Positions 3,998-35,366 of a DNA stretch of 64,000 bases are shown here, one piece after another. Both the position numbers and the translations under genes were made by a program. Source of the stretch: a gamma proteobacterium SCGC AAA076-P13 (GTDB lineage: Bacteria > Pseudomonadota > Gammaproteobacteria > Magnimaribacterales > D2472); assembly GCA_000384935.1 (NCBI GenBank), contig ARRA01000001.1, positions 167,810 through 231,809 on the forward strand. The letters are read 5' to 3'. The first letter of the stretch is position 1; every line of letters begins with the position of its first letter. The notes under the pieces are model-generated. The model worked only from the letters and a program-made list of their open reading frames with translations, had not been told where the DNA came from and did not search any database.

Positions 3998-4972
3998 TTA
4001 GTCTATTTTTCCTGACAGATCGAATTGATTAATAAAAGACCATATTTCTTTGGTAGCACCAACACCATAAATAGATTCTATAGGCCATCTGTGTCCCATA
4101 CCACTACTCTTAAATAGCTCTACTCGTACATCATTTTGACAGTCTTTGTATGTTTTATGATCAACAGAAATACCAAGATCAAAAAAATCTATAACTTCAA
4201 CATCTGGAGCTGAATTGCATAAGTTGTAATTAGACCAGAACTCCAAAGTAGTTTCTATTGGCAACATTCCTAGAGCTGAATTACCATCAAATGGGACTGT
4301 TGGATCTAGCGCCCCATGAATTTGCATAACTGGTGTTGGATGCTCTGGATTACAGTCCGTCAACATTTCTGTGCTGAATGAGCCAGTTACAGATACGATT
4401 GCAGCAATTCTTGAGCTTAAGTTGCATGCAAGGTTATAGCTCATAAAGCCGCCATTGGACATTCCAGAAGAGTAGATTCTATTCTTATTAATTGCTGCTT
4501 TGTCATCTATAAGATCAATAACAGTATTGATAAAATCAATATCATCAACAGTACTGCCAATAGTCCAGGCACCAACATTCCAATGCGATGAGCTAGATGC
4601 TAAAGCAGTTTCTAATTTGTAACCTTGTGCATATACAACAATAGCTTTGTTAGTGTTCGCAAAAGATTCATGCTCCGTATAGGCCTTATGCGTTTCAGCA
4701 GATGACCCATAGCCATGCAATGCAAACAAAACTGGGGCTTCGTCATTATTGGTTATGGTTGTTGGTGTATATATTAAATAGTATCTATCTAGACCCTTAT
4801 GGGTTAGTGAACATCTTTCTGTGTTTGTGGAATAAGAAACACATGTTTCAGGTGGTTCTGATACAGGTGGTGTTGGCGATGACTCAATATCATTGCTTGA
4901 TGAGCCTCCTCCACCACATGAGACAATAATCAACAATGTCAGTGATAAGTATAAATAATTTTTAGTGATCAT
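3998..4972 (-). CDS. lipoprotein esterase, PHB-depolymerase/LpqC (CE1-like alpha/beta hydrolase) family
   Basis: 324 aa. Lipobox LLIIVSC followed by a GGGGSSS tether. LFALHGYGSS, nucleophile elbow GMSNGG, and HGALDPTVPFDG near the C-terminus. Confidence 0.72.
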   Translation of the reverse strand: MITKNYLYLSLTLLIIVSCGGGGSSSNDIESSPTPPVSEPPETCVSYSTNTERCSLTHKGLDRYYLIYTPTTITNNDEAPVLFALHGYGSSAETHKAYTEHESFANTNKAIVVYAQGYKLETALASSSSHWNVGAWTIGSTVDDIDFINTVIDLIDDKAAINKNRIYSSGMSNGGFMSYNLACNLSSRIAAIVSVTGSFSTEMLTDCNPEHPTPVMQIHGALDPTVPFDGNSALGMLPIETTLEFWSNYNLCNSAPDVEVIDFFDLGISVDHKTYKDCQNDVRVELFKSSGMGHRWPIESIYGVGATKEIWSFINQFDLSGKID

Positions 4973-5015
4973 TAAGATAATTTAACTTATAAAGATAAAG
5001 AATCAAAGGTGAAAT

Positions 5016-5091
5016 TGGTGCGGTACGCCGGTCTCGAACCGGCGGCCTTCTGCTTGGCAAGCAGACGCTCTACCAACTGAGCTAGTACCGC
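5016..5091 (-). tRNA. tRNA-Gly (anticodon GCC)
   Basis: The reverse complement reads GCGGTACTAGCTCAGTTGGTAGAGCGTCTGCTTGCCAAGCAGAAGGCCGCCGGTTCGAGACCGGCGTACCGCACCA. It has a 7-bp acceptor stem, anticodon loop TTGCCAA, a T-arm GGTTCGAGACC and an encoded CCA. Length 76 nt. Confidence 0.95.
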
Positions 5092-5102
5092 AATTGAGGA
5101 GT

Positions 5103-5131
5103 AATATAACCTTTAAGACATATCCTTTCAA
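5103..5131 (-). promoter_or_regulatory. candidate sigma-70 promoter for tRNA-Gly
   Basis: On the minus strand: TTGAAA (5131-5126), a 17-nt spacer, then TATATT (5108-5103), ending 11 nt before the tRNA 5' end. Confidence 0.45.
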
Positions 5132-5178
5132 GCATCAATTAAAAGCTATACGCGAAAAAATAGGATTGAATTAAATTA

Positions 5179-5649
5179 TTAATTTACTTTAATTTTTTTA
5201 ATTTCTTTGAAGCCAAATTCATCTTGTGAAAGCAGAATAAAATAGGCAGCATTAACAGAAACAGGAATAGCTATTTCAAAATCTTGAGCAATATATGCTT
5301 GAAAAGTAGCTTCATCTTCATAGCCTATATGGTCAATATGCAAAGTAAAAGGATCACCTAGGCCAGCTAGCATAATTTGATTTCCTTCCTCATTAAGAAC
5401 TCTAATTGCGTATTTATCTTTACGAGATATCAGTCCATATTTCTTTAAGGATTGTCTGCTAGGTTTTGCTATCTTTACATTGGTTAGTGAAATATTATTT
5501 ACGCCGCCAGTAATACTAAATATTTTAGCTTCGACCTGAGGGTTAGCTTTTAAATCTAACCTATCAAATTGTTTAATTAAATCTGCTTCCTCTGCAATGA
5601 GGTTAAAAGCAAATAAAATACAGATTATTAAATACATTTTTTTTACCAT
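5179..5649 (-). CDS. small secreted protein of unknown function, translationally coupled to the upstream M64-like peptidase gene
   Basis: The track ORF is 5179..5670. The likely start is the ATG at 5649 (MVKKMYLIICILFAFNLIAEEA, a signal peptide) or 5637. It overlaps or abuts the peptidase stop at 5643-5645. Confidence 0.6.
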   Translation of the reverse strand: MVKKMYLIICILFAFNLIAEEADLIKQFDRLDLKANPQVEAKIFSITGGVNNISLTNVKIAKPSRQSLKKYGLISRKDKYAIRVLNEEGNQIMLAGLGDPFTLHIDHIGYEDEATFQAYIAQDFEIAIPVSVNAAYFILLSQDEFGFKEIKKIKVN

Positions 5650-7994
5650 TTCGCCCAATTTATCCCCCATGTAAAACCTAAAGGACCGTTCATATAGCCA
5701 TAAGAGAACTCGCTATACTCACTTGGATCAGGTTCATATCTAAAGTCGTTACATTTATCGTTAGAATAATCAGCACACCACACAAAATAGGATTGAAGCA
5801 TCCCTTCATAAAAGTCACTATTATCTAATACATCATCAGTTGCAGTTACAGTGCCAGTTAAATCTATCACCTTGGCTGTATAAATATCAACTCCAGTAGA
5901 TCTGTTAAAAGAAACAGATTTTTGGTTTTGAAAGGCAACTCTCTCAACACCATTTACATACCACTTAAGCGTAAGCTTAGATGTGTCATATTCTGCATCA
6001 ATAGTCATCTGCCAAGCAGCATTATTATCAGTAAATCCAAAATTTACTAAATCTTCAAATGCATCATAAAAACCTTGATTTTGAATTGAGCCAATTGCGA
6101 AGCCCTCAAGATTTACATCCCCATAGCCACCACTTGAACATGAGTCCATTATTGAACAGAATGTTGGTCTATAGTTGTCAAATTCCCCATAATAATTTCC
6201 CTCAAAAAGGCCTACACCCGCACAATCAGGATTTTTTCCAATAAAAGGATAATATGGCTCGCCTCCATCTGCATCATCTGTTAGTGGACCCCATATATTT
6301 GCGAGACAACCACAATTGGTATTAACAACATACTCATCTGCGTCTCGATCATAAATACTTCCATCACCAACGTTGTAGCACACTTCAATATCTCTACCTA
6401 AAACGTTTAATTGATTATCTATATGATGATTCCATTTTAAAAGTGAAACATCATTTTGAGTTGATGTGTTGACGTTAAGTTCAGCATATTCACTAACATC
6501 CCTCTCATCATCTGATCTATACTCATCCCCCATATACCCGTGCGCATGGCCAAGCTCATGCATGAGAGTCGTGCTTGTTCTTTCAGGATCAGTATCTCTA
6601 ATCCTTTGAATATTTCTATTGCCTACATTTACCCCTCTACCTTGAACTCTTGTAAGTGAAGAGACCAAGACATAATCTGTAAGTAGATCTGCAAAAATCC
6701 CTGTATCCATATCTTCAATACAATAAATATCTTCGTCATAATCATAGCAGCCTGTTCTGATTCCTAGGGGTGATGTTCCATCTGGATCAACTGGCTCAGC
6801 AGAAATAATTGTAAAGAAGTCTTCACTAAAAAAATCTGATGCATCTGAATCATTCAGTTTATTAATTGAGGCTAGCAAGGCTCGTCTATAAAGAACAATA
6901 TCAGATGCTCCATCCAATGAATCAGCTATAAATAAATATTTAGTTTTTCCCAACGAACTTGGGTTTCCAGAAAGATAATAAACAGTATAATCTTTCGGTG
7001 TTTTAGTGCCACCATCAGCCCCAAAACCATCCTCTGGGTCATCATCCTGTTGAATAGTTATGGTTGTTTTATTGGACACAAACCAAGTTTCAAAACTTAA
7101 GGTGCCACTGCTAGTGCTATCACTAACCCTCAATTGAGCACTATAAAGACCAGCTTTTTCAAGAGCAGAAAGATTAACTTCAAAAACACCAGAACCATTT
7201 ATGTTTTCACCTGTATCAAGAGTAAAAGTGCTATTTATTGATTGATCTCCAATAAGCGTATCAAAGGTTAGATTTGCAATATCAGTATCTATGTCAGTTA
7301 CCATTACTCTAAATGTCTGCTCATCATCAAATAACATTGTATTTTTTGAAAAATCATTACTAACTTCAAATACTATCGTTGGCTTATCATCAACCGAATT
7401 AACTGTTATATTTGCATTCCCAGTTTCTGTTAGGTTTTTTTCAGCTACATTGACTGTATATTCAAACTGATCTGTTCCAAAGTAATTACTATTTGGTCTA
7501 TATGAGAAAGACCCATCACTATTTAAAGTTAAGTTGCCCGATGATACATCTGACGTTATGGAATAAGATAAAGTAACGGACTCATTGGCTGACGCTGCAA
7601 TAGAACCACTTAGTTCAGTGTCTTCATCTGTAGAAAAAATTCCTGATGCAAGAGTTAATGCAAATGCCTTTACTGTTACCGAGTCTGAACTAGAGCCGCC
7701 AGCACCAGTACAAGAAATAGAATATGTGTTATCGCCAGCTGTTGAGACAGTTACTGTCTCTGAGCCAGAAGATGTTGTCTGACTTGTCCATGAAGCCGAA
7801 CAAGCATTTGCGTTTGTTGATGACCAAGATAGCGTTGAGGTACTGTCTAATAAAACTGATAATGGATCAGCCGACAGATTAACTGTTGGTAAGGGGTTTG
7901 AGGGAATTTGAGGTGCTGGCATATCACTGCCACCACCACCTCCTCCACCACAAGAAGCAATTAAAAGGACTAGAGGAAAATATAAAAATCTCAT
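5643..7994 (-). CDS. surface/periplasmic lipoprotein with cadherin-like repeats and an M64 (IgA-peptidase-like) zinc metallopeptidase domain
   Basis: 783 aa. Lipobox LLIASC followed by Gly7. N-terminal 75-aa module shared with the 2011-aa lipoprotein. NSDGSFSYRPNSNYFGTDQFEYTV is a cadherin/VCBS-like repeat. TLMHELGHAHGYMGDEY followed by GLFEGNYYGEFDNYRPTFCSIMD is the signature pattern of the M64 family. Confidence 0.75.
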   Translation of the reverse strand: MRFLYFPLVLLIASCGGGGGGGSDMPAPQIPSNPLPTVNLSADPLSVLLDSTSTLSWSSTNANACSASWTSQTTSSGSETVTVSTAGDNTYSISCTGAGGSSSDSVTVKAFALTLASGIFSTDEDTELSGSIAASANESVTLSYSITSDVSSGNLTLNSDGSFSYRPNSNYFGTDQFEYTVNVAEKNLTETGNANITVNSVDDKPTIVFEVSNDFSKNTMLFDDEQTFRVMVTDIDTDIANLTFDTLIGDQSINSTFTLDTGENINGSGVFEVNLSALEKAGLYSAQLRVSDSTSSGTLSFETWFVSNKTTITIQQDDDPEDGFGADGGTKTPKDYTVYYLSGNPSSLGKTKYLFIADSLDGASDIVLYRRALLASINKLNDSDASDFFSEDFFTIISAEPVDPDGTSPLGIRTGCYDYDEDIYCIEDMDTGIFADLLTDYVLVSSLTRVQGRGVNVGNRNIQRIRDTDPERTSTTLMHELGHAHGYMGDEYRSDDERDVSEYAELNVNTSTQNDVSLLKWNHHIDNQLNVLGRDIEVCYNVGDGSIYDRDADEYVVNTNCGCLANIWGPLTDDADGGEPYYPFIGKNPDCAGVGLFEGNYYGEFDNYRPTFCSIMDSCSSGGYGDVNLEGFAIGSIQNQGFYDAFEDLVNFGFTDNNAAWQMTIDAEYDTSKLTLKWYVNGVERVAFQNQKSVSFNRSTGVDIYTAKVIDLTGTVTATDDVLDNSDFYEGMLQSYFVWCADYSNDKCNDFRYEPDPSEYSEFSYGYMNGPLGFTWGINWAKW

Positions 7995-8005
7995 CTAAAA
8001 AATTA

Positions 8006-8036
8006 TATATTAAATAAAAAAAAAGAGGGCTAAAAG
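8006..8036 (-). terminator. intrinsic terminator after the TonB-dependent receptor gene
   Basis: Stem AGAGGGCT (8014-8021), loop AAA, stem AGCCCTCT (8025-8032). Flanked by an A-run (8006-8013) and a T-run (8033-8036). It lies 28 nt past the receptor stop. Confidence 0.65.
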
Positions 8037-8063
8037 CCCTCTTTTTAATTCCAATAAATTGTC

Positions 8064-11000
8064 TTACAGCTTGTATCTGAAACCTAATTTGTAAACAGGT
8101 CCTTGATCTTGATATAAGAAAAGCATTTCATTGTGTCTTGCAAACAATCTTACATCTTCATCTGTAATATTTTGCGCTTCAATAAATACAACTGAATTCT
8201 CATTAACATTATATGATGCACTAAAATCAACTTGACCTCTTTCTTCAACAAATAGAGGATTGTATGAGTCCATACCAGCATATGTCTCAGCTTTTAAATT
8301 ATAAGAAATTCTTGCTGAATATTTTTCATCTTCATAGAAGACTGATAAGTTAGCTGCGTCACCAAATCCAGGTAAAGCAAACTGCTCACCAACATAAGCT
8401 GCGTCTACATCAGTGTCACCACCAACAAGAGTTGCATTAGCTAGAACACCAAAGTTATTATCAAATAAATGTTGAACTGATACTTCAAAACCATCAAGAG
8501 TTCCATCATATTTGTTAACAGGTCTGAATACTTCGAATTGTGCTAAAGGATCTCCATCAGCTGCACTTCCAACAAATACTGCATTACCATCACCGCCTGT
8601 ACTTGTAACACAACCTGCTTCAGATCTACCTGATGCGGCACAACCAAATGTGAACCCAGTTCCAGCTATCCACGCATAGTCTTGAACTTGGTTAACCCAA
8701 GGAGCACAACCCCAGTAGCCTTGACTTGCTGTCCACTGACAAAAGGCATCATTTACATTATTGTCGATTCCAGCATTCAAACCACCGGCTGTAACATCAG
8801 CAACATTATTAAATGATGTAGTTCCTTGACCAGATCCATGATAGTCAGAAATATCTTTTCTAAAGTAGTTCACAGCAAAATAGCTGCCTTCTTTATAGTA
8901 ATGTTCATAGGCAACATCAAAGTTCTCTGCAGTATATGGCTGTAAGTTAGGGTTACCTGAAAATACTTGTCTAGGTGTAAATGGAGTGTATGAAGACATA
9001 GTAAATGAACTGCTTAATGTTTCTAAAGCAGGTCTTGATAATGTCTTACTTGCACTAAATCTTACTAGTTGATTTTCAGCAAATTCGTACGAAATATTGA
9101 AGTTAGGTAAGAATGAGTCACTCGCACCTGTATCAACAAAAGTTTGTACCGGTCCATCAACCATATTAATCCTTTGCGGGCCATATGCTACACCTTCATA
9201 GCCATAGTCTCCGAATCCCCAAATTGTTGCAACAGGTAATGCTGCTGCACCAATAGATGATCTAGTAACATCTTCATATCTTAGCCCAAGCTGAGCTCTT
9301 ACCTCTCCACCATTTGAAGTTACGTATTCGAAATTAAAGTTTGCATAAAGTGATTCGATAACTTCTGAAACAGATTCATCGCTATCAACCGCACCTTTAC
9401 ACATGACTCCTCTTGTAGTTGTCTGAAGTCCAGTTGCTCCATTAGTAAGTCCGTTAGGATTGCCGTTAGCATCAACAGCATCATCAGCAGTACATTCCCA
9501 TGTATCATGACCATTAGCTGAGAACCAATTTTCTCCCATGAATGAATAGTTTAGCCAACCAGTTCTTTCAAACAAGTATTGAGCCTGTTGAGGATCCATA
9601 GCTAAGTAATGAGTATTAGTACCTGACCCTAAATAGTCAACAAGATTTACTTTTGTAAATGCTGCATCGTCCCAAAGGGCATATGCCAACATTATTGGAT
9701 TACCAGGTCCTAAGTTTGAACTTCCTTTCATATCATTTCTATACTTTTGAGCAACAAAATTTTGTTTTAATCTAGAAATACCAAACTCAACAGATGTAAG
9801 TGATTCCATTACAAGACCAGAGTCGTTATCCCATACTCCATTGAATTGAATTTGTGAATTATCACTTCTTTTATCTTCGTATACGATTGAACCTTCTCTA
9901 GCAACCATGTCTTGTGCATCGAATTCTGTTATATCATTTATTTGAGCAACACCATTAGCATCACAGCAATAAAATCTTTTATTTAACCAGCTTAACGCAC
10001 CAACAGGGTTGTTAAAATCAAATCTTCTGTCAAACATTGAACCTGCTTGTTCAAAGATTCCAGCTTGACCAAACCCAGGCCATGAACCGCCAGTAAAGGT
10101 AACGTTGTTGTCAGCATATGATCCATCTGGATTACCTTTTTTAGCAGCTGTTGAATTGTGATAATCAATTTCTAAAGTTAGAGTGTCTGAAGCAGCAATT
10201 TCAATATTTAAGCCTAAAGATTTATTAGTGCTTTTGTTTTCACCCCATGTAACTGAGTTAGTAAAGCTTTCGCCATAAAAAACGTCATTAGCTTGATGAG
10301 TTTCCATACCACTTACTACAGCGCCATTTTCATTGATAACCATTTCTCTATTGTTCCAACCAGCAAAATATGATCCAAACTGAACACCGTCAGTTTCAAA
10401 TTCAACATCTGACCATGTGTAATCTAAAGTAGTTCTAACTTTTCCTAATTCAAACTGGAAAGCAGTTTGAGCGTTATTTCTAACTCTTTTGTTATTTTTA
10501 AATTTGTAATTTAGAGCTTCAGGATAAAAAATTTCACCATCAGTTCTTTTACTGTTGTTAGTAACAACTGAGTTACTAGGAAATCTATATGTTAAGCCTT
10601 CATCAACCATCGGCAACCATGCAATTTCGTTAGTACCATCTTCTCTATTCTCTCTATCTTGATGTGATCCAGAAATTGAGAAGCCCCATGACATATCGTT
10701 GTACATATTTTTTGTAGCATATAAAAAGTCTACTTCAGGAGTAACATCCCCTTTTGAATGATCATAAGCTCTTGCAGAAACTGATCCAATTGTATCCTGG
10801 CCAATATCTAATGGTTTTGTTGTTACCATGTTTACTGTAGAACCCAGACCACCAGTAGGCAAAGTTGCGTTAGCTGATTTATAAACCTCAACAGCAGCAA
10901 TACCGTGTGCTGAAATATCACCAAAATTAAATGATCTTCCACCTACATACCTTCCTGGTACTGTTGGCATTGACCTTCCATTTAAGGTAACCAAGTTAAA

Positions 11001-11309
11001 CTCAGGCCCTAAACCTCTGACAGAGATCTTTGTACCTTCATCATTACTTCTTTCAGTTGTAACACCTACAAGCCTTGCAAGTGATTCAGCAAGGTTTCCG
11101 TCTGGAAACTTACCAATGTCTTCAGCTGAAATAGCATCAACAACACCGACATTTTTTCTTTTAATGTTGATTGCATCAATTAAGCTATTTCTAATACCAG
11201 TTGTTACGATTTCTTCAACTGCTGCTTCATCAGCTTCTTCAGCCTCTTGAGCATTTACAAACGTTGATAGTGGTAGTAATACCATTAATGATAATAAATA
11301 TTTGTTCAC
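8064..11309 (-). CDS. TonB-dependent outer-membrane receptor
   Basis: 1081 aa. Signal peptide, TonB-box-like EEIVTTG, plug region VVDAISAEDIGKFPDGNLAESLARLVGV, and a long beta-barrel ending ...YKLGFRYKL. GTG start preceded by AAAGGGGA. Confidence 0.92.
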   Translation of the reverse strand: MNKYLLSLMVLLPLSTFVNAQEAEEADEAAVEEIVTTGIRNSLIDAINIKRKNVGVVDAISAEDIGKFPDGNLAESLARLVGVTTERSNDEGTKISVRGLGPEFNLVTLNGRSMPTVPGRYVGGRSFNFGDISAHGIAAVEVYKSANATLPTGGLGSTVNMVTTKPLDIGQDTIGSVSARAYDHSKGDVTPEVDFLYATKNMYNDMSWGFSISGSHQDRENREDGTNEIAWLPMVDEGLTYRFPSNSVVTNNSKRTDGEIFYPEALNYKFKNNKRVRNNAQTAFQFELGKVRTTLDYTWSDVEFETDGVQFGSYFAGWNNREMVINENGAVVSGMETHQANDVFYGESFTNSVTWGENKSTNKSLGLNIEIAASDTLTLEIDYHNSTAAKKGNPDGSYADNNVTFTGGSWPGFGQAGIFEQAGSMFDRRFDFNNPVGALSWLNKRFYCCDANGVAQINDITEFDAQDMVAREGSIVYEDKRSDNSQIQFNGVWDNDSGLVMESLTSVEFGISRLKQNFVAQKYRNDMKGSSNLGPGNPIMLAYALWDDAAFTKVNLVDYLGSGTNTHYLAMDPQQAQYLFERTGWLNYSFMGENWFSANGHDTWECTADDAVDANGNPNGLTNGATGLQTTTRGVMCKGAVDSDESVSEVIESLYANFNFEYVTSNGGEVRAQLGLRYEDVTRSSIGAAALPVATIWGFGDYGYEGVAYGPQRINMVDGPVQTFVDTGASDSFLPNFNISYEFAENQLVRFSASKTLSRPALETLSSSFTMSSYTPFTPRQVFSGNPNLQPYTAENFDVAYEHYYKEGSYFAVNYFRKDISDYHGSGQGTTSFNNVADVTAGGLNAGIDNNVNDAFCQWTASQGYWGCAPWVNQVQDYAWIAGTGFTFGCAASGRSEAGCVTSTGGDGNAVFVGSAADGDPLAQFEVFRPVNKYDGTLDGFEVSVQHLFDNNFGVLANATLVGGDTDVDAAYVGEQFALPGFGDAANLSVFYEDEKYSARISYNLKAETYAGMDSYNPLFVEERGQVDFSASYNVNENSVVFIEAQNITDEDVRLFARHNEMLFLYQDQGPVYKLGFRYKL

Positions 11310-12837: not shown

Positions 12838-13128
12838 TTAGTTCTTAAGCCCAGAAACTGCATCTGTGTTTTCAGTTTCTTTAGTAACTGTTTTTAAGAT
12901 TGTGCAGCTGCCTTTTGATGAATCAAGCGTAAAAGCAACACAAGATGATCTGCTAGTGCAAAGAGCCTGACAGCTTTCTACTGTTCTGAATTTTTTTGAT
13001 GTTTTTACAGTTGCTATTTTTCCTGAGAATGAAATATCAGCTTTAGGCGTGAAGTTCATATCTGCAGCAAAAGCAGGAAGTGCAAACAATACAGCTGTTA
13101 ATGCAAAAATCGATGTTAGTTTTTTCAT
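12838..13128 (-). CDS. small secreted protein with a PAN/Apple-like four-Cys domain
   Basis: 96 aa. Signal peptide ending AFA, then ESCQALCTSRSSCVAFTLDSSKGSCTILK (C-x3-C-x5-C-x11-C, PAN-like spacing). Confidence 0.5.
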   Translation of the reverse strand: MKKLTSIFALTAVLFALPAFAADMNFTPKADISFSGKIATVKTSKKFRTVESCQALCTSRSSCVAFTLDSSKGSCTILKTVTKETENTDAVSGLKN

Positions 13129-29240: not shown

Positions 29241-32200
29241 CTAATCATCCTGAACAGTTAATCTAGTAGGAATATTTCTTCCAGATTTGGCATTAGAAGT
29301 GTTCATTATGATTTCAAATTCAATAAACTCCTGTTTTTCTTGAAGGTTATCATCTGCAGGAGAGTTAAATATTACACATTTTTGTGAAGTACCTTCATCA
29401 ATAGTTAGAGTGGTTGAGGCAAAATTTACCTCCTCTGGTTTTAGGAATCCAGGTTTATTTCTATACACTGGATTAATTCTAAAAGTTATATCATCTTCTG
29501 CAGCCCATGCAGTATTAAAACAAATATCTGTATCCTTATCTTCTCCAAATATTATTGGCAGATAATAACTATATACTGAATTAGATGGATTTTCTGACAC
29601 CCCAAATATCCCAGCAATAATTGATGATGTCTGATCATAATCATCTAAAACAGCATATTCACCTAAATCAATCTTATATGAATATGCAGAATCATTTTTA
29701 AAGAAATTTTTCACAGCTTGAAGTTCAGATAAGTTAAATTGATCTCTCACCTTACCAAGTAAAGATTTTAGGAAATCAAAATCACTAAATGTATAGCTTC
29801 CTTTTGGTATTGTTCTTGAAATATCCCCACGATTATTGACCACTTGCTTTGTTAAAACTGTGTCGCCTTCTATGATTTTAAATGTAATCTTACCTTGATC
29901 TAACCAAGTGACTTGAACAGCTCCAGAGGCAAGAGTTTCAATTTTTAGCTCAACAATGAGTTCTAAATATTCTGATGTTTTTGCATACTCTTCATTTGAA
30001 AAAATTTGGAGTTTAAAATCCTCAACACTTGTGAATGGAGCATCCACATTTAATGATAAATTAAATTTAGTATCAGCTGTATAGCTTCCCTCAATAAATG
30101 CATCCATTGAAGCTTTAGAGATTTCTGATCCAACTAAAGAGGCATCAATCCAATTTGTTGAAGTATTTAATCTTGGAAAAATTCTATAATCTCTATTTTT
30201 ACCATCAATCAATCTATCGTAAAAAATAATGCCATTATTACTCTCTGATTCAAATAATATATTAGATTTGGGAGCGGTGGTTCCAATAAAATTATCATAA
30301 TCATATTTAGAGCCACTCATTATATTAAAAATAGCATCCCTAGCGTCTTGGCCATATAAAGTTTCACCAATATCATTACATCCTCCTTCAGCAGGGCATT
30401 CTGAAGCACTATACTGATCATCTCGAGGCACAGATGAGACTCGATAATTATAAGTTTTAAATGTTTCACCATTATCTCGATCAGGTGATGTATTTGGAGA
30501 ATAATAATAAAATGCACTTTCTCCATAAGATAGAAGCTTTCTCATTTCATCAATTTCAGATAATGCTGCTGGTATTTGTGCTACTTCTTTAATTAAGGAT
30601 TCAGGATCTAAATTATCATTATCAATAATGTTGTAAACTTTGCTTTCGGTTAATCTGGAAGTTCCATGGTTATTTACTGAAAATTGAATAGCCCAAGTTG
30701 GAGCAGTATCAGGAAAATTATCTCCTCTTCCTTGTTTTTCAATTCTAAGTCCAATTGCTGGACCATAATTTGGAAGTAAAGAACAGGTTTTAAGGTTATT
30801 TACACCTCTTCCAAATCCGTACCTATACTCCATTTGTAAACCTTTTGAATCTTGGGGTCCTACAAATTGTATCGTTTCTTGAGACTCACAATATGACTCT
30901 GCAGTTGAATCCTCGTTTCTAATACCGCTAGACTCGCTACCTCTTATATTGATATTTCCAACAACCCCATCAACTGAAAAGTTATCGTTATTAATATTAA
31001 CCTGCCTGTGATACCTTTTTGATGCATCAGCAACACCAGTTAGAGATAGGTTAGAAATACTACAATTTGTATTATTTTCTAATGTGCATAAATATCTCTT
31101 TAGGCTTCCATCAGCATTAACAGAGGCACCAGTCGAGCTTATTTCGTCTATATTATAAAACCCTTTTAAATTTTTCTTAGTTTTGTAAATTGAAAAGAAC
31201 TCTAGAGGAAGGGTCGTAAACTCACCTGTTTTTAATATCGCATCTAAAGAGTCGCTAGATAAAGATACATTGGGAGTTACATCTTTACCATACCTTGTTG
31301 AAAGTTCAGAAGATATATCTTCTTTGATAGCGTTATAAGATGGGAAGAATGCAGCTACCTTTTGAGCTAGCTCTTCAGTTATGCTACTTGAACCATCACT
31401 AGCAATAAAATCAACGATTAAGTTATCAAAAGTAATACCATAATTGTTTTCAATATTGCTAATTAAAGACGAAACTTGAGAAGAAATTTTATTCGCTACT
31501 GCATCACCCTCAGATTGACATCCTTCAGTGACGGATAAATCTTCAGTTAAATCTGCATCATTTTTCCCTTTTAAAATAGCCTCGCCAATAAGAGATGTAA
31601 AAGGAGAAATAACAAGCTCATTTGAGCCAGCATCGTTAACTGAAGGTAAAAGCATTTGATATGCTTTTGTTACTGTTCCCAAAGTTGAGTCTTCTGCACC
31701 AACAGGGATATTGGCAACAATAGGTCTAGCCTTGATACATGCTAGATCGCCATCATTTACCTTAATCTCAAAAGTACCATCTGCGTTAGTTATTGCGTTG
31801 TATTCACCAGCATCAAGTCTTTGATTGAAATTAACATCAAAAAAGACTGTAGCACCAGAAATATAGCCATCAATAGTTTTACCAGTTAATGATGTTCTTT
31901 GGTCAGTGACAGCAGATGACCCATTAAACTCAGAATTATTAAAAGCTTTTGATTTAGAGTTAATTGTAGAAAATAAATCATCCCTAGCTTGCTGGCCTGA
32001 TGAATTTATAACCTCAGTTCTTATAGAGCCTGTATCTGAATTCTCATATGTGGCATATTCAAAATTATCATTATCAGGATTATGTGATAGTAGCATCATT
32101 GAGCTTTCAGTAATCTGACTTGATGAATTTCTTTTTGTCCAATATATTCTTATAACATCTGTAGATGTTGTGCTGAGCTTATCTCTCAAGATGTTCATTG

Positions 32201-35200
32201 CCTTAAATGTTCTGGGCACAGATGCGATTTCCTGTATCAATGGATCTACATTAATATTGCTTCTATTGTTATAAACATCATTTAACTTATTAGTAAAAAA
32301 TGTTGATTTACTGTAATCAGCATTTTTTATCCTAATATCTATTTCTTCAAAATTAACGCCATCGTCATACTGGTCCACAAGGGCTACAAAAAGTGCCTCA
32401 TCTTTACCTGAAAGCTCTTCAACGCATTTATCATTCCCCTCACTGCCTGAGGCAACACCTGTATTATATCTATCGTTAGTAGTAAAGTTTTCTCTTTGAT
32501 TGACTGGAACTAAATATAACCAGTTTTGTAAAATACAAATTCTACTCGAAGGATTACCATCAAAGTCAAAGTCAACTCTTTGTTCATCTTCAACAACAAG
32601 TTGATAGTTGTATGTTGATGGATTGTAGTTATTATTTATGAAGGAACTTGTTCTTGTATATCTTTGGGAGGCATCTCTCAATGAAACTAAACTAATATCG
32701 CTAGTCGAGCAGTTATCACTATCTCCAAAACATGTATAGTGGTTCATTTCACCTGTATTGTTTAACTTGGCGCCAAAGGCTGTAATTTTTTCTTGAATGA
32801 ACCACCCTTGATCATTAGGTTCTGTTTTATATATAGCAGAGAAGCTAACTGGTATTTCTTCAATAGATGAATTTGCCAAGATTGAGTTGATTGAATCCTT
32901 TTCAATTGTTACATCAGTATTAATTGTTTTATCATGAATAATTGAAAGTTCGGAATCAAACTCATCTGTTAAATCTTTAAAGTATGGAAAAAACTTCGCA
33001 ATATTTTGTGCAGATGTCTCAGTAATTATTGAGCTAGAAGTGTCAGCAATAAAATCAATAACCAAATCATCATATGAAATATTTAGACTTGTGCTTAATG
33101 TATTTTTAATTTGAGTTAATTCATTTGAAATACTCGAAGCAATGCTATTGCCAATATTACTACAACCCTCAACTAAAGTTAGTTCATCAGTTATGGAAGA
33201 AGACCTTTTGGCTTGTATAACAGCGTCACCCAACAGGCTTGTAAAAGGAGAAATTACAATTGATGAATTGCCAGTGTCATTTATAGATGGCAATACCATC
33301 CTATATGCCTTAGTCACATCACCTAGGCTTGAATCTATAGCACCAACGGGCACATTAGCAACTATAGGTCTTGATTTTAAACAGTTATACAACTCCAAAT
33401 CATCTGTAGAAATATTAAAATTGCCATCTGAATTAGTTATAGAACTTATCTCTCCATCATCAAGTCTAAAATTGAAATTCTGATCCAGATAAACCTCTGC
33501 TCCTTCAATATATCCATCTATTGTTTTGCCTTCAAAAGTATATTCACCTTTCTTAATAACAGAAACAGTAATATTTTTTGTCACGGTTTCTGTGCCATCT
33601 GTTAAAGAGAGAGTGATTGAATATGAGGATTTATCAGCATAACTAGCTGCTTCTTTAAGGCTAAGAACATTTTCATTTGAAAGATTAAAACTATTAGCAT
33701 CAACACCCTCAATAGAAAGTGTTAGTTCATCTCCATCAATATCAAAAATAGAAATAGTTGTGATAGCGGTCTCATCCTCTAAAATACTAATAACAGAAGC
33801 AGTATTTATCGATGGTTTATCATTAGTAGCTTCAATAGTCACTGAAACATTTGCAGATGATGTTTTGCTTCCTTGAGTAATAGAATAACTAAAAATATCA
33901 GTTCCATTGAAGTCGGCGTTCGGGGTATAAACAACTTGTTCGGGCGAAGATTCGGCCAAGAGTGTTGTCCCATTAGAACCGTTGCCAGATACTATTGATA
34001 TTGGAGATGACGTTAAGTAAGAATCATTAGCTAATACATTAATTGTTACTGATGTATCCTCTAAGGTAGAAGCAGAATCAGCCACAGCTGTTACTGAGGG
34101 TGCAATATTACCCGAATCGATGTTTTGGTCTTCTGCTATATAATTTAAAATATCACCTGTGTAACTAGCTATTATTTCATCTGAAGCGGTTCCATTTGCA
34201 ATAGCTTGAATATCTGTTTGAAGGGTTGATACTGCAAAGCGGATTACTGATGTGGTCAAATCATCAGTAGACTTAACCTCAATAACTGGCATGACACCTG
34301 ATAGTGCTTTTGTAGTATTGGCTTTAGCGGCATCAGTAATAGTTAAGGTTTTTGCTTCAATAATATTATTTACAGTTTTAGTTATAAAGTCTTCAGTTTC
34401 TATGTCTACTTTCGCGGTTGTTTCTGTGTATTCCTTTTCCAGTTCTTCTGTAATAGCCTTGAAGTAATCTTGAGTCGTTTCGGTTGTGGTATTTAAATTA
34501 TTAGTAATATTTTGCAGTGCATAAGCAAGAACCGTTAGCTGGTTGCCCTTTTCATATAAATAATCATTTATACCACCATCGCCCTTATTAGCCACTGGAT
34601 CAAAAATAGAAACATCAATAGAAGAATCAATTCCCAGAGCAGCATTTACATTAGTAGCATCTGTCATAAATGCAGCAACCGAAGTAACAGGTGTTACAGC
34701 TTTAAAGTCTGAGTGGCCAGTAAGTTTATGAGTAATTAAAAGATTATCTAAAAGGGTTTGAGAATCTAAGTCAGTTCCACCAATGGAAATTAAACTCCCA
34801 TTTGCATACTTAATAGTAAATTTACCATCATTATCTGAAGTCGTTGTGCTTTCATCGGAGTTACAAGTCCAACTTTCATCTTCGTCAATGCATACTTCAG
34901 CACCAGATATGTAGCCATCAACAACTACACCATCAGTGTTTCTATAGCCCTCAACTGTTACTGATACAGATTTAGAACCTCCAGCTCCAGTACAAGAAAT
35001 AGAAAAAGTATTATTGCCAGCTGATGATATCGAAACTGCTTCAGAACCAGAAGCAGATGTCTGGGTCGTCCAACTAGCTGAACAAGAAGTTGTGTTCGTT
35101 GAAGACCAAGTTAAAGTTGAAGTGTTATCAAGCAGAACTGAAACTGGATCAGCAGAAAGATTAACAGTTGGTGCTGGCGTTGTTGGTGTAACTGGGGAAG

Positions 35201-35276
35201 CGCTCCCGCCGCCGCCGCCACCTCCACAAGAAGATATTAAGAATATAAGTGGTAGTAAAAATGAAAATTTATTCAT
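29241..35276 (-). CDS. giant (~2011 aa) lipoprotein of unknown function with cadherin-like repeats and a large internal duplication
   Basis: The track ORF extends to 35312. The likely start is MNKFSFLLPLIFLISSC at 35276 (lipobox followed by Gly7). It shares a 75-aa N-terminal module with 5643..7994. It has three DGYIxGAxV...DG.F modules, two cadherin/VCBS-like repeats (YTPNADFNGTDIFSYSI; DKPSINT...), and two ~549-aa tandem repeats. I see no catalytic motif. Confidence 0.8.
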   Translation of the reverse strand: MNKFSFLLPLIFLISSCGGGGGGGSASPVTPTTPAPTVNLSADPVSVLLDNTSTLTWSSTNTTSCSASWTTQTSASGSEAVSISSAGNNTFSISCTGAGGSKSVSVTVEGYRNTDGVVVDGYISGAEVCIDEDESWTCNSDESTTTSDNDGKFTIKYANGSLISIGGTDLDSQTLLDNLLITHKLTGHSDFKAVTPVTSVAAFMTDATNVNAALGIDSSIDVSIFDPVANKGDGGINDYLYEKGNQLTVLAYALQNITNNLNTTTETTQDYFKAITEELEKEYTETTAKVDIETEDFITKTVNNIIEAKTLTITDAAKANTTKALSGVMPVIEVKSTDDLTTSVIRFAVSTLQTDIQAIANGTASDEIIASYTGDILNYIAEDQNIDSGNIAPSVTAVADSASTLEDTSVTINVLANDSYLTSSPISIVSGNGSNGTTLLAESSPEQVVYTPNADFNGTDIFSYSITQGSKTSSANVSVTIEATNDKPSINTASVISILEDETAITTISIFDIDGDELTLSIEGVDANSFNLSNENVLSLKEAASYADKSSYSITLSLTDGTETVTKNITVSVIKKGEYTFEGKTIDGYIEGAEVYLDQNFNFRLDDGEISSITNSDGNFNISTDDLELYNCLKSRPIVANVPVGAIDSSLGDVTKAYRMVLPSINDTGNSSIVISPFTSLLGDAVIQAKRSSSITDELTLVEGCSNIGNSIASSISNELTQIKNTLSTSLNISYDDLVIDFIADTSSSIITETSAQNIAKFFPYFKDLTDEFDSELSIIHDKTINTDVTIEKDSINSILANSSIEEIPVSFSAIYKTEPNDQGWFIQEKITAFGAKLNNTGEMNHYTCFGDSDNCSTSDISLVSLRDASQRYTRTSSFINNNYNPSTYNYQLVVEDEQRVDFDFDGNPSSRICILQNWLYLVPVNQRENFTTNDRYNTGVASGSEGNDKCVEELSGKDEALFVALVDQYDDGVNFEEIDIRIKNADYSKSTFFTNKLNDVYNNRSNINVDPLIQEIASVPRTFKAMNILRDKLSTTSTDVIRIYWTKRNSSSQITESSMMLLSHNPDNDNFEYATYENSDTGSIRTEVINSSGQQARDDLFSTINSKSKAFNNSEFNGSSAVTDQRTSLTGKTIDGYISGATVFFDVNFNQRLDAGEYNAITNADGTFEIKVNDGDLACIKARPIVANIPVGAEDSTLGTVTKAYQMLLPSVNDAGSNELVISPFTSLIGEAILKGKNDADLTEDLSVTEGCQSEGDAVANKISSQVSSLISNIENNYGITFDNLIVDFIASDGSSSITEELAQKVAAFFPSYNAIKEDISSELSTRYGKDVTPNVSLSSDSLDAILKTGEFTTLPLEFFSIYKTKKNLKGFYNIDEISSTGASVNADGSLKRYLCTLENNTNCSISNLSLTGVADASKRYHRQVNINNDNFSVDGVVGNINIRGSESSGIRNEDSTAESYCESQETIQFVGPQDSKGLQMEYRYGFGRGVNNLKTCSLLPNYGPAIGLRIEKQGRGDNFPDTAPTWAIQFSVNNHGTSRLTESKVYNIIDNDNLDPESLIKEVAQIPAALSEIDEMRKLLSYGESAFYYYSPNTSPDRDNGETFKTYNYRVSSVPRDDQYSASECPAEGGCNDIGETLYGQDARDAIFNIMSGSKYDYDNFIGTTAPKSNILFESESNNGIIFYDRLIDGKNRDYRIFPRLNTSTNWIDASLVGSEISKASMDAFIEGSYTADTKFNLSLNVDAPFTSVEDFKLQIFSNEEYAKTSEYLELIVELKIETLASGAVQVTWLDQGKITFKIIEGDTVLTKQVVNNRGDISRTIPKGSYTFSDFDFLKSLLGKVRDQFNLSELQAVKNFFKNDSAYSYKIDLGEYAVLDDYDQTSSIIAGIFGVSENPSNSVYSYYLPIIFGEDKDTDICFNTAWAAEDDITFRINPVYRNKPGFLKPEEVNFASTTLTIDEGTSQKCVIFNSPADDNLQEKQEFIEFEIIMNTSNAKSGRNIPTRLTVQDD

Positions 35277-35366
35277 GTTAAAAAAAAATTTATTTATATA
35301 TAAAAATAACATAGGTTGACTATATTGGTATAGCTTTATAGTTATTTTTTTATATATAATAAAAAT

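Follow-up and report, generated by a model that had tools for sequence, protein, structure and literature searches.

In Bacteroidota, BACON/immunoglobulin (Ig)-like domains are found behind the lipid Cys of surface lipoproteins, namely the glycosidases and glycan-binding proteins encoded in polysaccharide utilization loci (PUL), where they are thought to be spacers, and a TonB-dependent transporter is frequently encoded next to these lipoproteins. Neisserial surface lipoproteins with a TonB-dependent receptor (TBDR) partner typically have a Gly-rich stretch after the lipid Cys. According to a preprint, outer-membrane lipoproteins of E. coli depend on disordered N-terminal linkers for optimal sorting by the Lol system (El Rayes et al., bioRxiv 10.1101/2021.01.05.425367). 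Here we analyze a 75-residue N-terminal module with two Cys that is shared by an M64-like lipoprotein and a giant cadherin-type lipoprotein, both encoded in a 64,000-nucleotide stretch of DNA (the window) from the gammaproteobacterium SCGC AAA076-P13 (GenBank assembly GCA_000384935.1, contig ARRA01000001.1, positions 167,810 to 231,809 of the forward strand). In a literature search on SAR86 lipoproteins and TonB-dependent systems, none of the papers listed dealt with this cassette, judging by titles and abstract openings. We find that the M64 gene gained the module by insertion, and the best explanation, which we hold to be reasonably probable, is that the module is a stalk behind a flexible tether and was shuffled from a cadherin-type giant gene.

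The M64-like lipoprotein is encoded by the open reading frame (ORF) 5643..7994 on the minus strand (783 amino acids, aa) and the giant lipoprotein by ORF 29241..35312, also on the minus strand (2023 aa, or 2011 aa if started at MNKFSF, 35276), with their module copies 27 kb apart. The N-termini are identical at 73 of 106 residues (BLASTP, E=1e-29), and within them residues 36-110 of the M64-like protein (nt 7665-7889) align without gaps to residues 48-122 of the giant protein (nt 34947-35171), with 56/75 residues (75%) identical and 74% identity at the DNA level. The sole further likeness of the two proteins is a cadherin-like/Big_9 region with 30% identity over 128 aa (BLASTP and Pfam, E=3e-7), so the module is much closer than the other repeats they share, and its similarity is far beyond chance. 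In both proteins the module is preceded by a signal peptide with a lipobox Cys (...LLIAS-C in the M64-like and ...FLISS-C in the giant protein, both conforming to [LVI][ASTVI][GAS]-C, as do the three other copies in the genome), by exactly seven Gly, and then by a Pro-rich linker of 11-13 residues. These results bear out the sequence-only reading of the window, which had counted the same 56 of 75 residues by hand, put the DNA similarity at roughly 70%, noted the signal peptide, lipobox Cys and exactly seven Gly in front of both modules, and described the rest of the two proteins as unrelated except for cadherin-like repeats. Residue +2 is Gly, not Asp, and by the E. coli rule a protein with this residue would not be held back in the inner membrane. 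The two proteins are laid out as follows.

7950..7994, minus strand: signal peptide and lipobox Cys15 (MRFLYFPLVLLIASC) of the M64-like lipoprotein (translation, lipobox scan).
7929..7949, minus strand: run of seven Gly, residues 16-22 of the M64-like lipoprotein (4-8 Gly are also present in 11 module-less orthologs).
7890..7928, minus strand: Pro-rich linker, residues 23-35, SDMPAPQIPSNPL, of the M64-like lipoprotein, mostly part of the insertion specific to this genome (DNA and protein alignment with orthologs).
7665..7889, minus strand: 75-aa two-Cys Ig-like module, residues 36-110 of the M64-like lipoprotein (75% identity to the module of the giant protein, AF2 model, VIA structure comparison).
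5643..7664, minus strand: payload of the M64-like lipoprotein, a cadherin-like/Big_9 domain followed by an M64-type metallopeptidase region with HELGH (Pfam, orthologs).
35226..35276, minus strand: signal peptide and lipobox Cys (MNKFSFLLPLIFLISSC) of the giant lipoprotein (translation, lipobox scan).
35172..35225, minus strand: run of seven Gly and Pro/Thr/Ser linker (SASPVTPTTPA) of the giant lipoprotein (translation, lipobox scan).
34947..35171, minus strand: 75-aa Ig-like module of the giant lipoprotein, representing the probable donor family (alignment, module tree).
29241..34946, minus strand: payload of the giant lipoprotein, cadherin-like/Big_9 repeats and large uncharacterized repeats (Pfam; paralogs at C2:282274 and C1:36240-38021 of the same genome).

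The payload of the M64-like protein matches Big_9 with 40.5 bits and, marginally, Peptidase_M64 (PF09471; 28.5 bits vs. a cut-off of 26), and its HELGH sequence, an HExxH zinc motif, is invariant among nine aligned M64 homologs. On these sequence features it is a predicted, if marginal, member of the M64 (IgA peptidase) family.

Comparison with relatives reveals how the M64 gene came by its module. Full-length M64-like orthologs were found in 11 other genomes of the genus (61-80% identical, 694-728 aa), and all 11 align only from residues 92-110 onward: each has a signal peptide, a lipobox, Gly4-8 and a 5-12-residue linker, then F-A/S-L-T, and no module. When the DNA is aligned with that of the three closest orthologs, the match runs from the 3' end of the upstream TBDR gene over the terminator hairpin and start codon through the sequence coding for signal peptide and poly-Gly, and the orthologs then show a clean gap of ~250 nt that ends just before GCATTTGC (A-F-A). 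The signal peptide of the M64-like protein (MRFLYFPL...) is unlike that of the giant protein and resembles those of the module-less orthologs (compare module-less P0198, MKYLYFPL...), and it is thus native to the M64 gene. A native signal peptide together with an internal gap indicates that the insertion was internal and that the 5' end was not exchanged; the M64 gene acquired its module via an in-frame insertion of ~80 codons. Short strings in common within the region coding for the Pro-Ala-Pro linker could have served as microhomology. The puzzling similarity of the two lipoproteins is hereby resolved as domain shuffling, with an Ig-like domain placed in frame in a peptidase lipoprotein gene.

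Several genes repeat the poly-Gly/lipobox DNA, and a contig end cuts off one paralog in this genome, so the fusion might instead be an assembly chimera formed at the repeated poly-Gly coding sequence. We consider this scarcely credible: the reading frame is kept across the insertion, its 3' junction falls in unique sequence, and both of its junctions are bridged by contigs of metagenome runs X1, X2 and X3 from three studies. These contigs cover 7300-8035 or all of 7300-8300, with 4-9 differences, and one of them spans the whole of 7300-8300; the bridging evidence consists of contigs, not raw reads, and one run is possibly the window's own source. The window stretch as such is present in marine metagenome runs of 17 studies, and the fused architecture recurs in several diverged protein clusters. 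The module and core identities of these proteins to the window M64 protein are 92% and 93% for P0153, 96% and 85% for P0152, 79% and 78% for P0158, 83% and 56% for P0155, and 47% and 39% for P0204, respectively.

Many module-less M64 clusters (703-726 aa) are also found in the public protein collection, and a tree of the M64 core (30 rows; two fragments of <600 aa left out) nests the window clade of five module-bearing M64 proteins among module-less ones. P0155 and P0204 branch outside this clade on long branches, and the maximum likelihood (ML) core tree needs two changes. An attempt to demonstrate at least two independent gains in M64 genes failed, as the approximately unbiased (AU) test did not reject a tree uniting the six closer module-bearing M64 proteins in one clade (p-AU 0.19).

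A whole-genome search of the assembly holding the window (1.31 Mb, 39 contigs, 87% complete, ~35% G+C) found five copies of the module, i.e. three beyond the two in the window. One, on contig C2 (C2:282274-284104), belongs to a paralog of the giant protein that is ~78% identical to it over the first 600 aa and is truncated where the contig stops; such paralogous giant genes are probably the cause of breaks in the assembly. Another, on contig C1 (C1:36240-38021), lies in a 593-aa cadherin-type paralog, and the last, on contig C15, belongs to a GH16 lipoprotein of 431 aa and has diverged (28% identity). In all five cases the module comes after a lipobox, 6-8 Gly and a linker. By a crude regular-expression scan, which misses true lipoproteins including three of the module genes and so yields a rough proportion only, this genome has ~28 candidate lipoproteins, ~22 without and ~6 with poly-Gly. 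Five of these six carry the module; the sixth, an esterase (3998-4972), has poly-Gly and no module, indicating that tether and module are separable.

To identify the donor we rely on a tree of 86 modules, in which only 77 columns were available and many forks are unresolved. Modules group by payload family (14 label changes vs. a mean of 36.6 after shuffling), and a clade of 50 rows (SH-aLRT 96) holds 42 cadherin-type modules, all seven M64 modules and one truncated ORF. The nesting of the M64 modules in a cadherin-type clade identifies the donor as a cadherin-type giant lipoprotein gene like that in the window. The five modules of the source genome are scattered in the tree and not clustered by genome.

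The sequence-only reading had proposed that the module spread by domain shuffling or by gene conversion between the two loci, and had named dN/dS as a check on the latter. Shuffling is upheld by the insertion being absent in 11/11 orthologs and by the place of the M64 modules in the tree. Ongoing conversion (concerted evolution), which would keep the two modules alike, could draw on copies that lie on the same strand at a distance of 27 kb and share flanking lipobox/poly-Gly coding sequence. However, the synonymous divergence of the window pair is near saturation (proportion of synonymous differences pS 0.55, dS 0.98, dN/dS 0.17) and as high as that between the modules of the giant protein and its C2 paralog (dS 0.95, 76% identity), and the modules group by payload, with those of this genome far apart. 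The lack of a low-dS tract between the window copies shows that there was no recent gene conversion, and we hold an ongoing process to be highly improbable. In the 450 residues next to the module, the giant protein and its C2 paralog are 78% identical (dS 1.45, dN/dS 0.10), from which it follows that the module (76%, dN/dS 0.17) is no better conserved than its surroundings. With dN/dS values of 0.14-0.20, it is nevertheless under purifying selection, and the present likeness of the two copies would reflect common descent and purifying selection on the fold.

Structure prediction, which the sequence-only reading had also suggested, gave an all-beta Ig-like sandwich: the AF2 model from a five-sequence alignment has six strands and a mean predicted local distance difference test (pLDDT) score of 94.9. 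Two invariant Cys are located on strands 27-32 and 53-62 and probably form a disulfide. W22 and W34 are likewise invariant, and the family signature reads L-x-W-S-S-x-N-x-x-x-C-x-A-S ... S-G-S-E ... C-x-G. A VIA-align run against 48,161 PDB representatives gave best matches at Z 8.6-8.0 with a root-mean-square deviation (rmsd) of ~2 Å over 71-75 residues, and 736 chains at Z>=5. The neighbors include Ig/PKD-like accessory domains of lacto-N-biosidase, polysaccharide lyase, an archaeal S-layer protein and invasin, as well as a carbohydrate-binding module (CBM)-type beta-sandwich and animal Ig domains. Foldseek against the PDB returned nothing at E<=1e-3 (top match the PKD domain of 1l0q, TMq 0.72), and the module profile found nothing under E=0.2 among PDB chain sequences. 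The best Pfam match of the module was Big_1 (E=0.11, 13 bits vs. a cut-off of 34.9), NCBIfam gave no relevant match, and the matches of 12 multi-copy relatives to Ig-like families (DUF5979, Filamin, K319L-PKD) were all below threshold. An ESM Atlas feature search with the module returned only clusters of unnamed "hypothetical protein" entries. Taken as a model, the module is confidently predicted to be a generic Ig/PKD-like beta-sandwich.

Searching a profile of alignment A3 against 1.84 billion representative proteins (clusters at 50% identity) revealed 9413 clusters at E<=1e-3, 3293 at E<=1e-10 and 632 at E<=1e-30. The best stretches of the matches cover profile positions 1-73/74, and the W / C-x-A-S / S-G-S-E / C-x-G signature is visible in, for example, P0058, P0105, P0129 and P0135. 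A domain recount of the best 150 matches, a list biased to many-copy proteins, gave 4-25 copies per protein, with the best-scoring copy anywhere between residues 17 and 1653. A lipobox-like Cys stands <=45 residues before the first copy in 29/150 of these proteins, and a lipobox with >=3 Gly in 12/150. The module is thus one copy of a very large repeat family without a Pfam or NCBIfam model above threshold. The sequence-only reading had itself stated that such a generic, widespread fold at arbitrary positions would make the module uninteresting, and this is what the stand-alone search shows, with up to 25 copies per protein.

Within the genus, the module is present in 20 of 24 other genomes with 1-8 matches each, and in other families of the order it is found in 2/6, 0/5 and 4/5 genomes. 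For a survey of N-termini, 43 module-bearing loci were taken from the 20 genus genomes. A lipobox Cys precedes the module in 35 of them, the module beginning 17-25 residues after the Cys, and 32 of the 35 have a run of 3-11 Gly behind it. Two more loci show a Cys and poly-Gly outside the lipobox pattern, one is cut by a contig start, and in five (L011, L015, L020, L047 and L053) the poly-Gly stretch is out of the module's frame and reads as WWRWWW or AVAEAEE-type strings, which repeat slippage or assembly error at GGN repeats could explain. The payloads behind the module are unrelated: 16 are GH16, 11 cadherin-type and 8 FG-GAP-type, and single cases are CotH, YHYH with a ricin lectin, M64, and proteins with no Pfam match. 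Two proteins of the cadherin-type cluster, L034 and L041 from genome G003, carry two tandem modules behind the lipobox and are intermediate between the single-copy use in the genus and the long arrays elsewhere.

Outside the genus, in all 10 loci from other families of the order, the signal peptide is again followed by the module before any other domain, whether or not poly-Gly is present; the module comes behind a lipobox and either an acidic linker or Gly4, or behind a signal peptide of the non-lipoprotein type. Loci L067-L069, L072 and L073, from one such family, have a lipobox Cys and an acidic linker, e.g. C-S-D-K-E-E-P-L-E-E-L, and no poly-Gly, and in L070, L071, L074 and L075 the module follows what appears to be an ordinary, non-lipoprotein signal peptide. 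A word-based search with the first 200 residues of the M64 protein, a seed biased to the lipobox/poly-Gly/module architecture, returned 77 module-bearing matches, 40 of them single-copy, and in 39 of these 40 a lipobox and poly-Gly are present and the module has begun by residue 60.

The sequence-only reading regarded the module as a common address or docking domain that could bind a shared partner such as the adjacent TBDR. We compared the positions of module genes with those of TBDR genes, of which the source genome has 14 matches. A stretch of 70 nt separates the M64-like gene from the TBDR gene upstream, and 1.2 kb, including a tRNA-Ala gene, lie between the C2 paralog of the giant gene and the TBDR gene that precedes it. 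Poly-Gly lipoproteins, moreover, are a minority of the candidates, and nearly all of them carry the module. The other three module genes of this genome, however, are away from TBDRs on the DNA available (the C15 contig has only ~2.8 kb), and five relatives together have 65 TBDR matches and 17 module genes, some of the latter on short contigs, with no module gene within 10 kb of such a match. All 11 M64 orthologs without the module keep the lipobox and poly-Gly, and they keep the TBDR neighbor where checked (G018, G003, G006), so that the TBDR pairing belongs to the M64 payload gene and not to the module. The recurrence of the same domain in tandem arrays and at arbitrary positions in thousands of proteins, and its being no better conserved than the adjacent 450 aa, likewise speak against a domain that is specifically read by a TBDR or by an export or anchoring machine for surface lipoproteins, with the cassette as a mark of surface display. 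An address or docking role of the module is unsupported, and we judge it improbable.

A broader version of this idea is that the lipobox, Gly6-9, a Pro/Ser/Thr linker and a single two-Cys Ig module together form a portable surface-display cassette, read by Slam-independent machinery that flips or retains lipoproteins. If this were true, genes would become those of surface enzymes by cassette gain, as that of the M64 peptidase did, and the cassette would play among proteobacteria the part that the lipoprotein export signal plays in Bacteroidota. A search for PF04575 (Slam/DUF560) gave 0 matches in the source genome, which is 87% complete, and 0/14 in control genomes as well, leaving the search itself unvalidated. 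We give this proposal little credence.

Our results suggest instead that the module is most likely a spacer and not a special address tag, a function to which its fold class, its position and the variety of its payloads point. In the arrangement that we propose, a type II signal peptide would deliver the lipobox Cys for lipid anchoring, the Gly7 run and the ~12-residue Pro/Ser/Thr linker would form a flexible tether, and the single compact Ig/PKD-like sandwich would be a rigid stalk that keeps the payload, an enzyme or adhesin, off the membrane, presumably at the outer membrane or cell surface. In the genus and the order, the module is used singly, as the leading folded domain of many secreted proteins and lipoproteins that otherwise have nothing in common. 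The M64 gene took up the module and part of the donor's linker, copied from a cadherin-type giant lipoprotein gene, and the lipobox/poly-Gly/Pro-linker coding sequence in common may have aided recombination.

A real rival to the stalk is a binding role, in which the module, as a CBM-like or cell-surface-binding domain, holds the payload on a polymeric substrate or on the cell's own envelope glycans. Its structural neighbors include accessory domains of glycosidases and lyases and a beta-sandwich CBM (Z 8.3-8.6), GH16 glycosidases are the commonest payload in the genus, and the module is under purifying selection with both Trp residues invariant. Yet a Z of ~8 is usual for a generic Ig-like sandwich, as the 736 chains at Z>=5 illustrate, the payloads include non-glycan enzymes and adhesin-like proteins, and the invariant Trp are equally likely to be core residues, no binding-site motif having been identified. 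On balance we regard ligand binding as rather unlikely.

Several observations weigh against the stalk and its shuffled origin as we present them. A spacer role is a default reading for any accessory Ig-like domain. Purifying selection on the module, and a fusion kept down to 78% or even 56% core identity, indicate that the module is useful, and this usefulness could lie in binding rather than spacing. Two of the five module genes in the source genome lie beside a TBDR, which suggests an association above chance expectation, and poly-Gly tether and module do travel together in this genome (5/6). The identities of P0155, high in the module and low in the core, hint at a further transfer or at stronger constraint. 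The number of gains into M64 genes is unsettled, and we claim at least one.

The M64-like gene is located in a row of four same-strand genes (3998-11309, minus strand) that looks like a small uptake and degradation locus, comprising the M64-like lipoprotein and the following features.

8064..11309, minus strand: TBDR directly upstream of the M64-like gene (Pfam Plug and TonB_dep_Rec_b-barrel; adjacency also in G018 and G003).
5179..5670, minus strand: 163-aa ORF overlapping the 3' end of the M64-like gene (BLASTP to P0204).
3998..4972, minus strand: esterase-type lipoprotein with a lipobox and Gly4 (CGGGGSSS...), without the module (lipobox scan; Pfam Abhydrolase_2).

The 163-aa ORF is 29% identical over 117 aa (BLASTP, E=3e-15) to the C-terminal extension of P0204, a distant M64 homolog of 950 aa in which its counterpart is fused to the M64 part, and this fusion suggests that the ORF product and the M64-like protein probably act together. 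Pfam found nothing on this ORF, on a 258-aa ORF of the window, or on the ORF upstream of the C1:36240 paralog. A terminator-like hairpin stands between the TBDR and M64-like genes; over the hairpin and its T-run (8014-8047), the summed contig depth spikes and many contigs have loose ends in all four metagenome runs, which suggests a short element common to many loci or organisms. Elsewhere in the window, a 96-aa ORF (12838-13128, minus strand) matches PAN/Apple models (PAN_1, 27.1 bits vs. a cut-off of 21.4), a domain known best from eukaryotes.

The M64 gene documents natural domain shuffling for which ocean metagenomes still show the donor family, orthologs without the module and several diverged descendants. 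The shuffling is of an ordinary kind with an unusually clean record, and no new mechanism is revealed. The survey of the genus and order outlines an architectural rule for exported proteins of an abundant uncultivated marine group, in which a signal peptide or lipid anchor is followed by a tether, one Ig module and a payload, and this rule can aid the annotation of surface enzymes. In addition, an Ig-like repeat family of >9000 clusters at 50% identity, for which the current Pfam and NCBIfam copies give no match above threshold, deserves a family model.

Among known systems, the TbpB/TbpA-type, Slam-dependent lipoproteins of Neisseria share with the window proteins a lipobox Cys followed by a Gly run, and a TBDR gene lies directly upstream of the M64 gene here; the payloads, however, are not related, and the majority of module genes have no adjacent TBDR gene. 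The E. coli linkers (10.1101/2021.01.05.425367) are likewise unstructured behind the lipid Cys, corresponding to the ~20 residues of Gly7 and Pro/Ser/Thr sequence here, although that preprint concerns the linker only, with no folded Ig-like domain and no poly-Gly specifically. Ig/PKD-like accessory domains (PKD, Big; E-set type) resemble the module in their length of ~75 aa, all-beta sandwich and single or tandem use, and they occur, as the module does, in secreted enzymes, adhesins and S-layer proteins; the closest structures are 9fyo, 5no8, 1l0q and 1cwv (Z 8.1-8.6, rmsd ~2 Å, 71-74 residues), while the module differs in passing no Pfam or NCBIfam threshold and in having its own signature. 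Lastly, the spacer lipoproteins of Bacteroidota belong to a different phylum and use a different domain family, with an acidic export signal in place of the poly-Gly tether and with a SusD partner of which none is seen here, yet they share with these gammaproteobacterial proteins the lipidated Cys, the flexible linker, the small beta-sandwich and the catalytic or binding payload.

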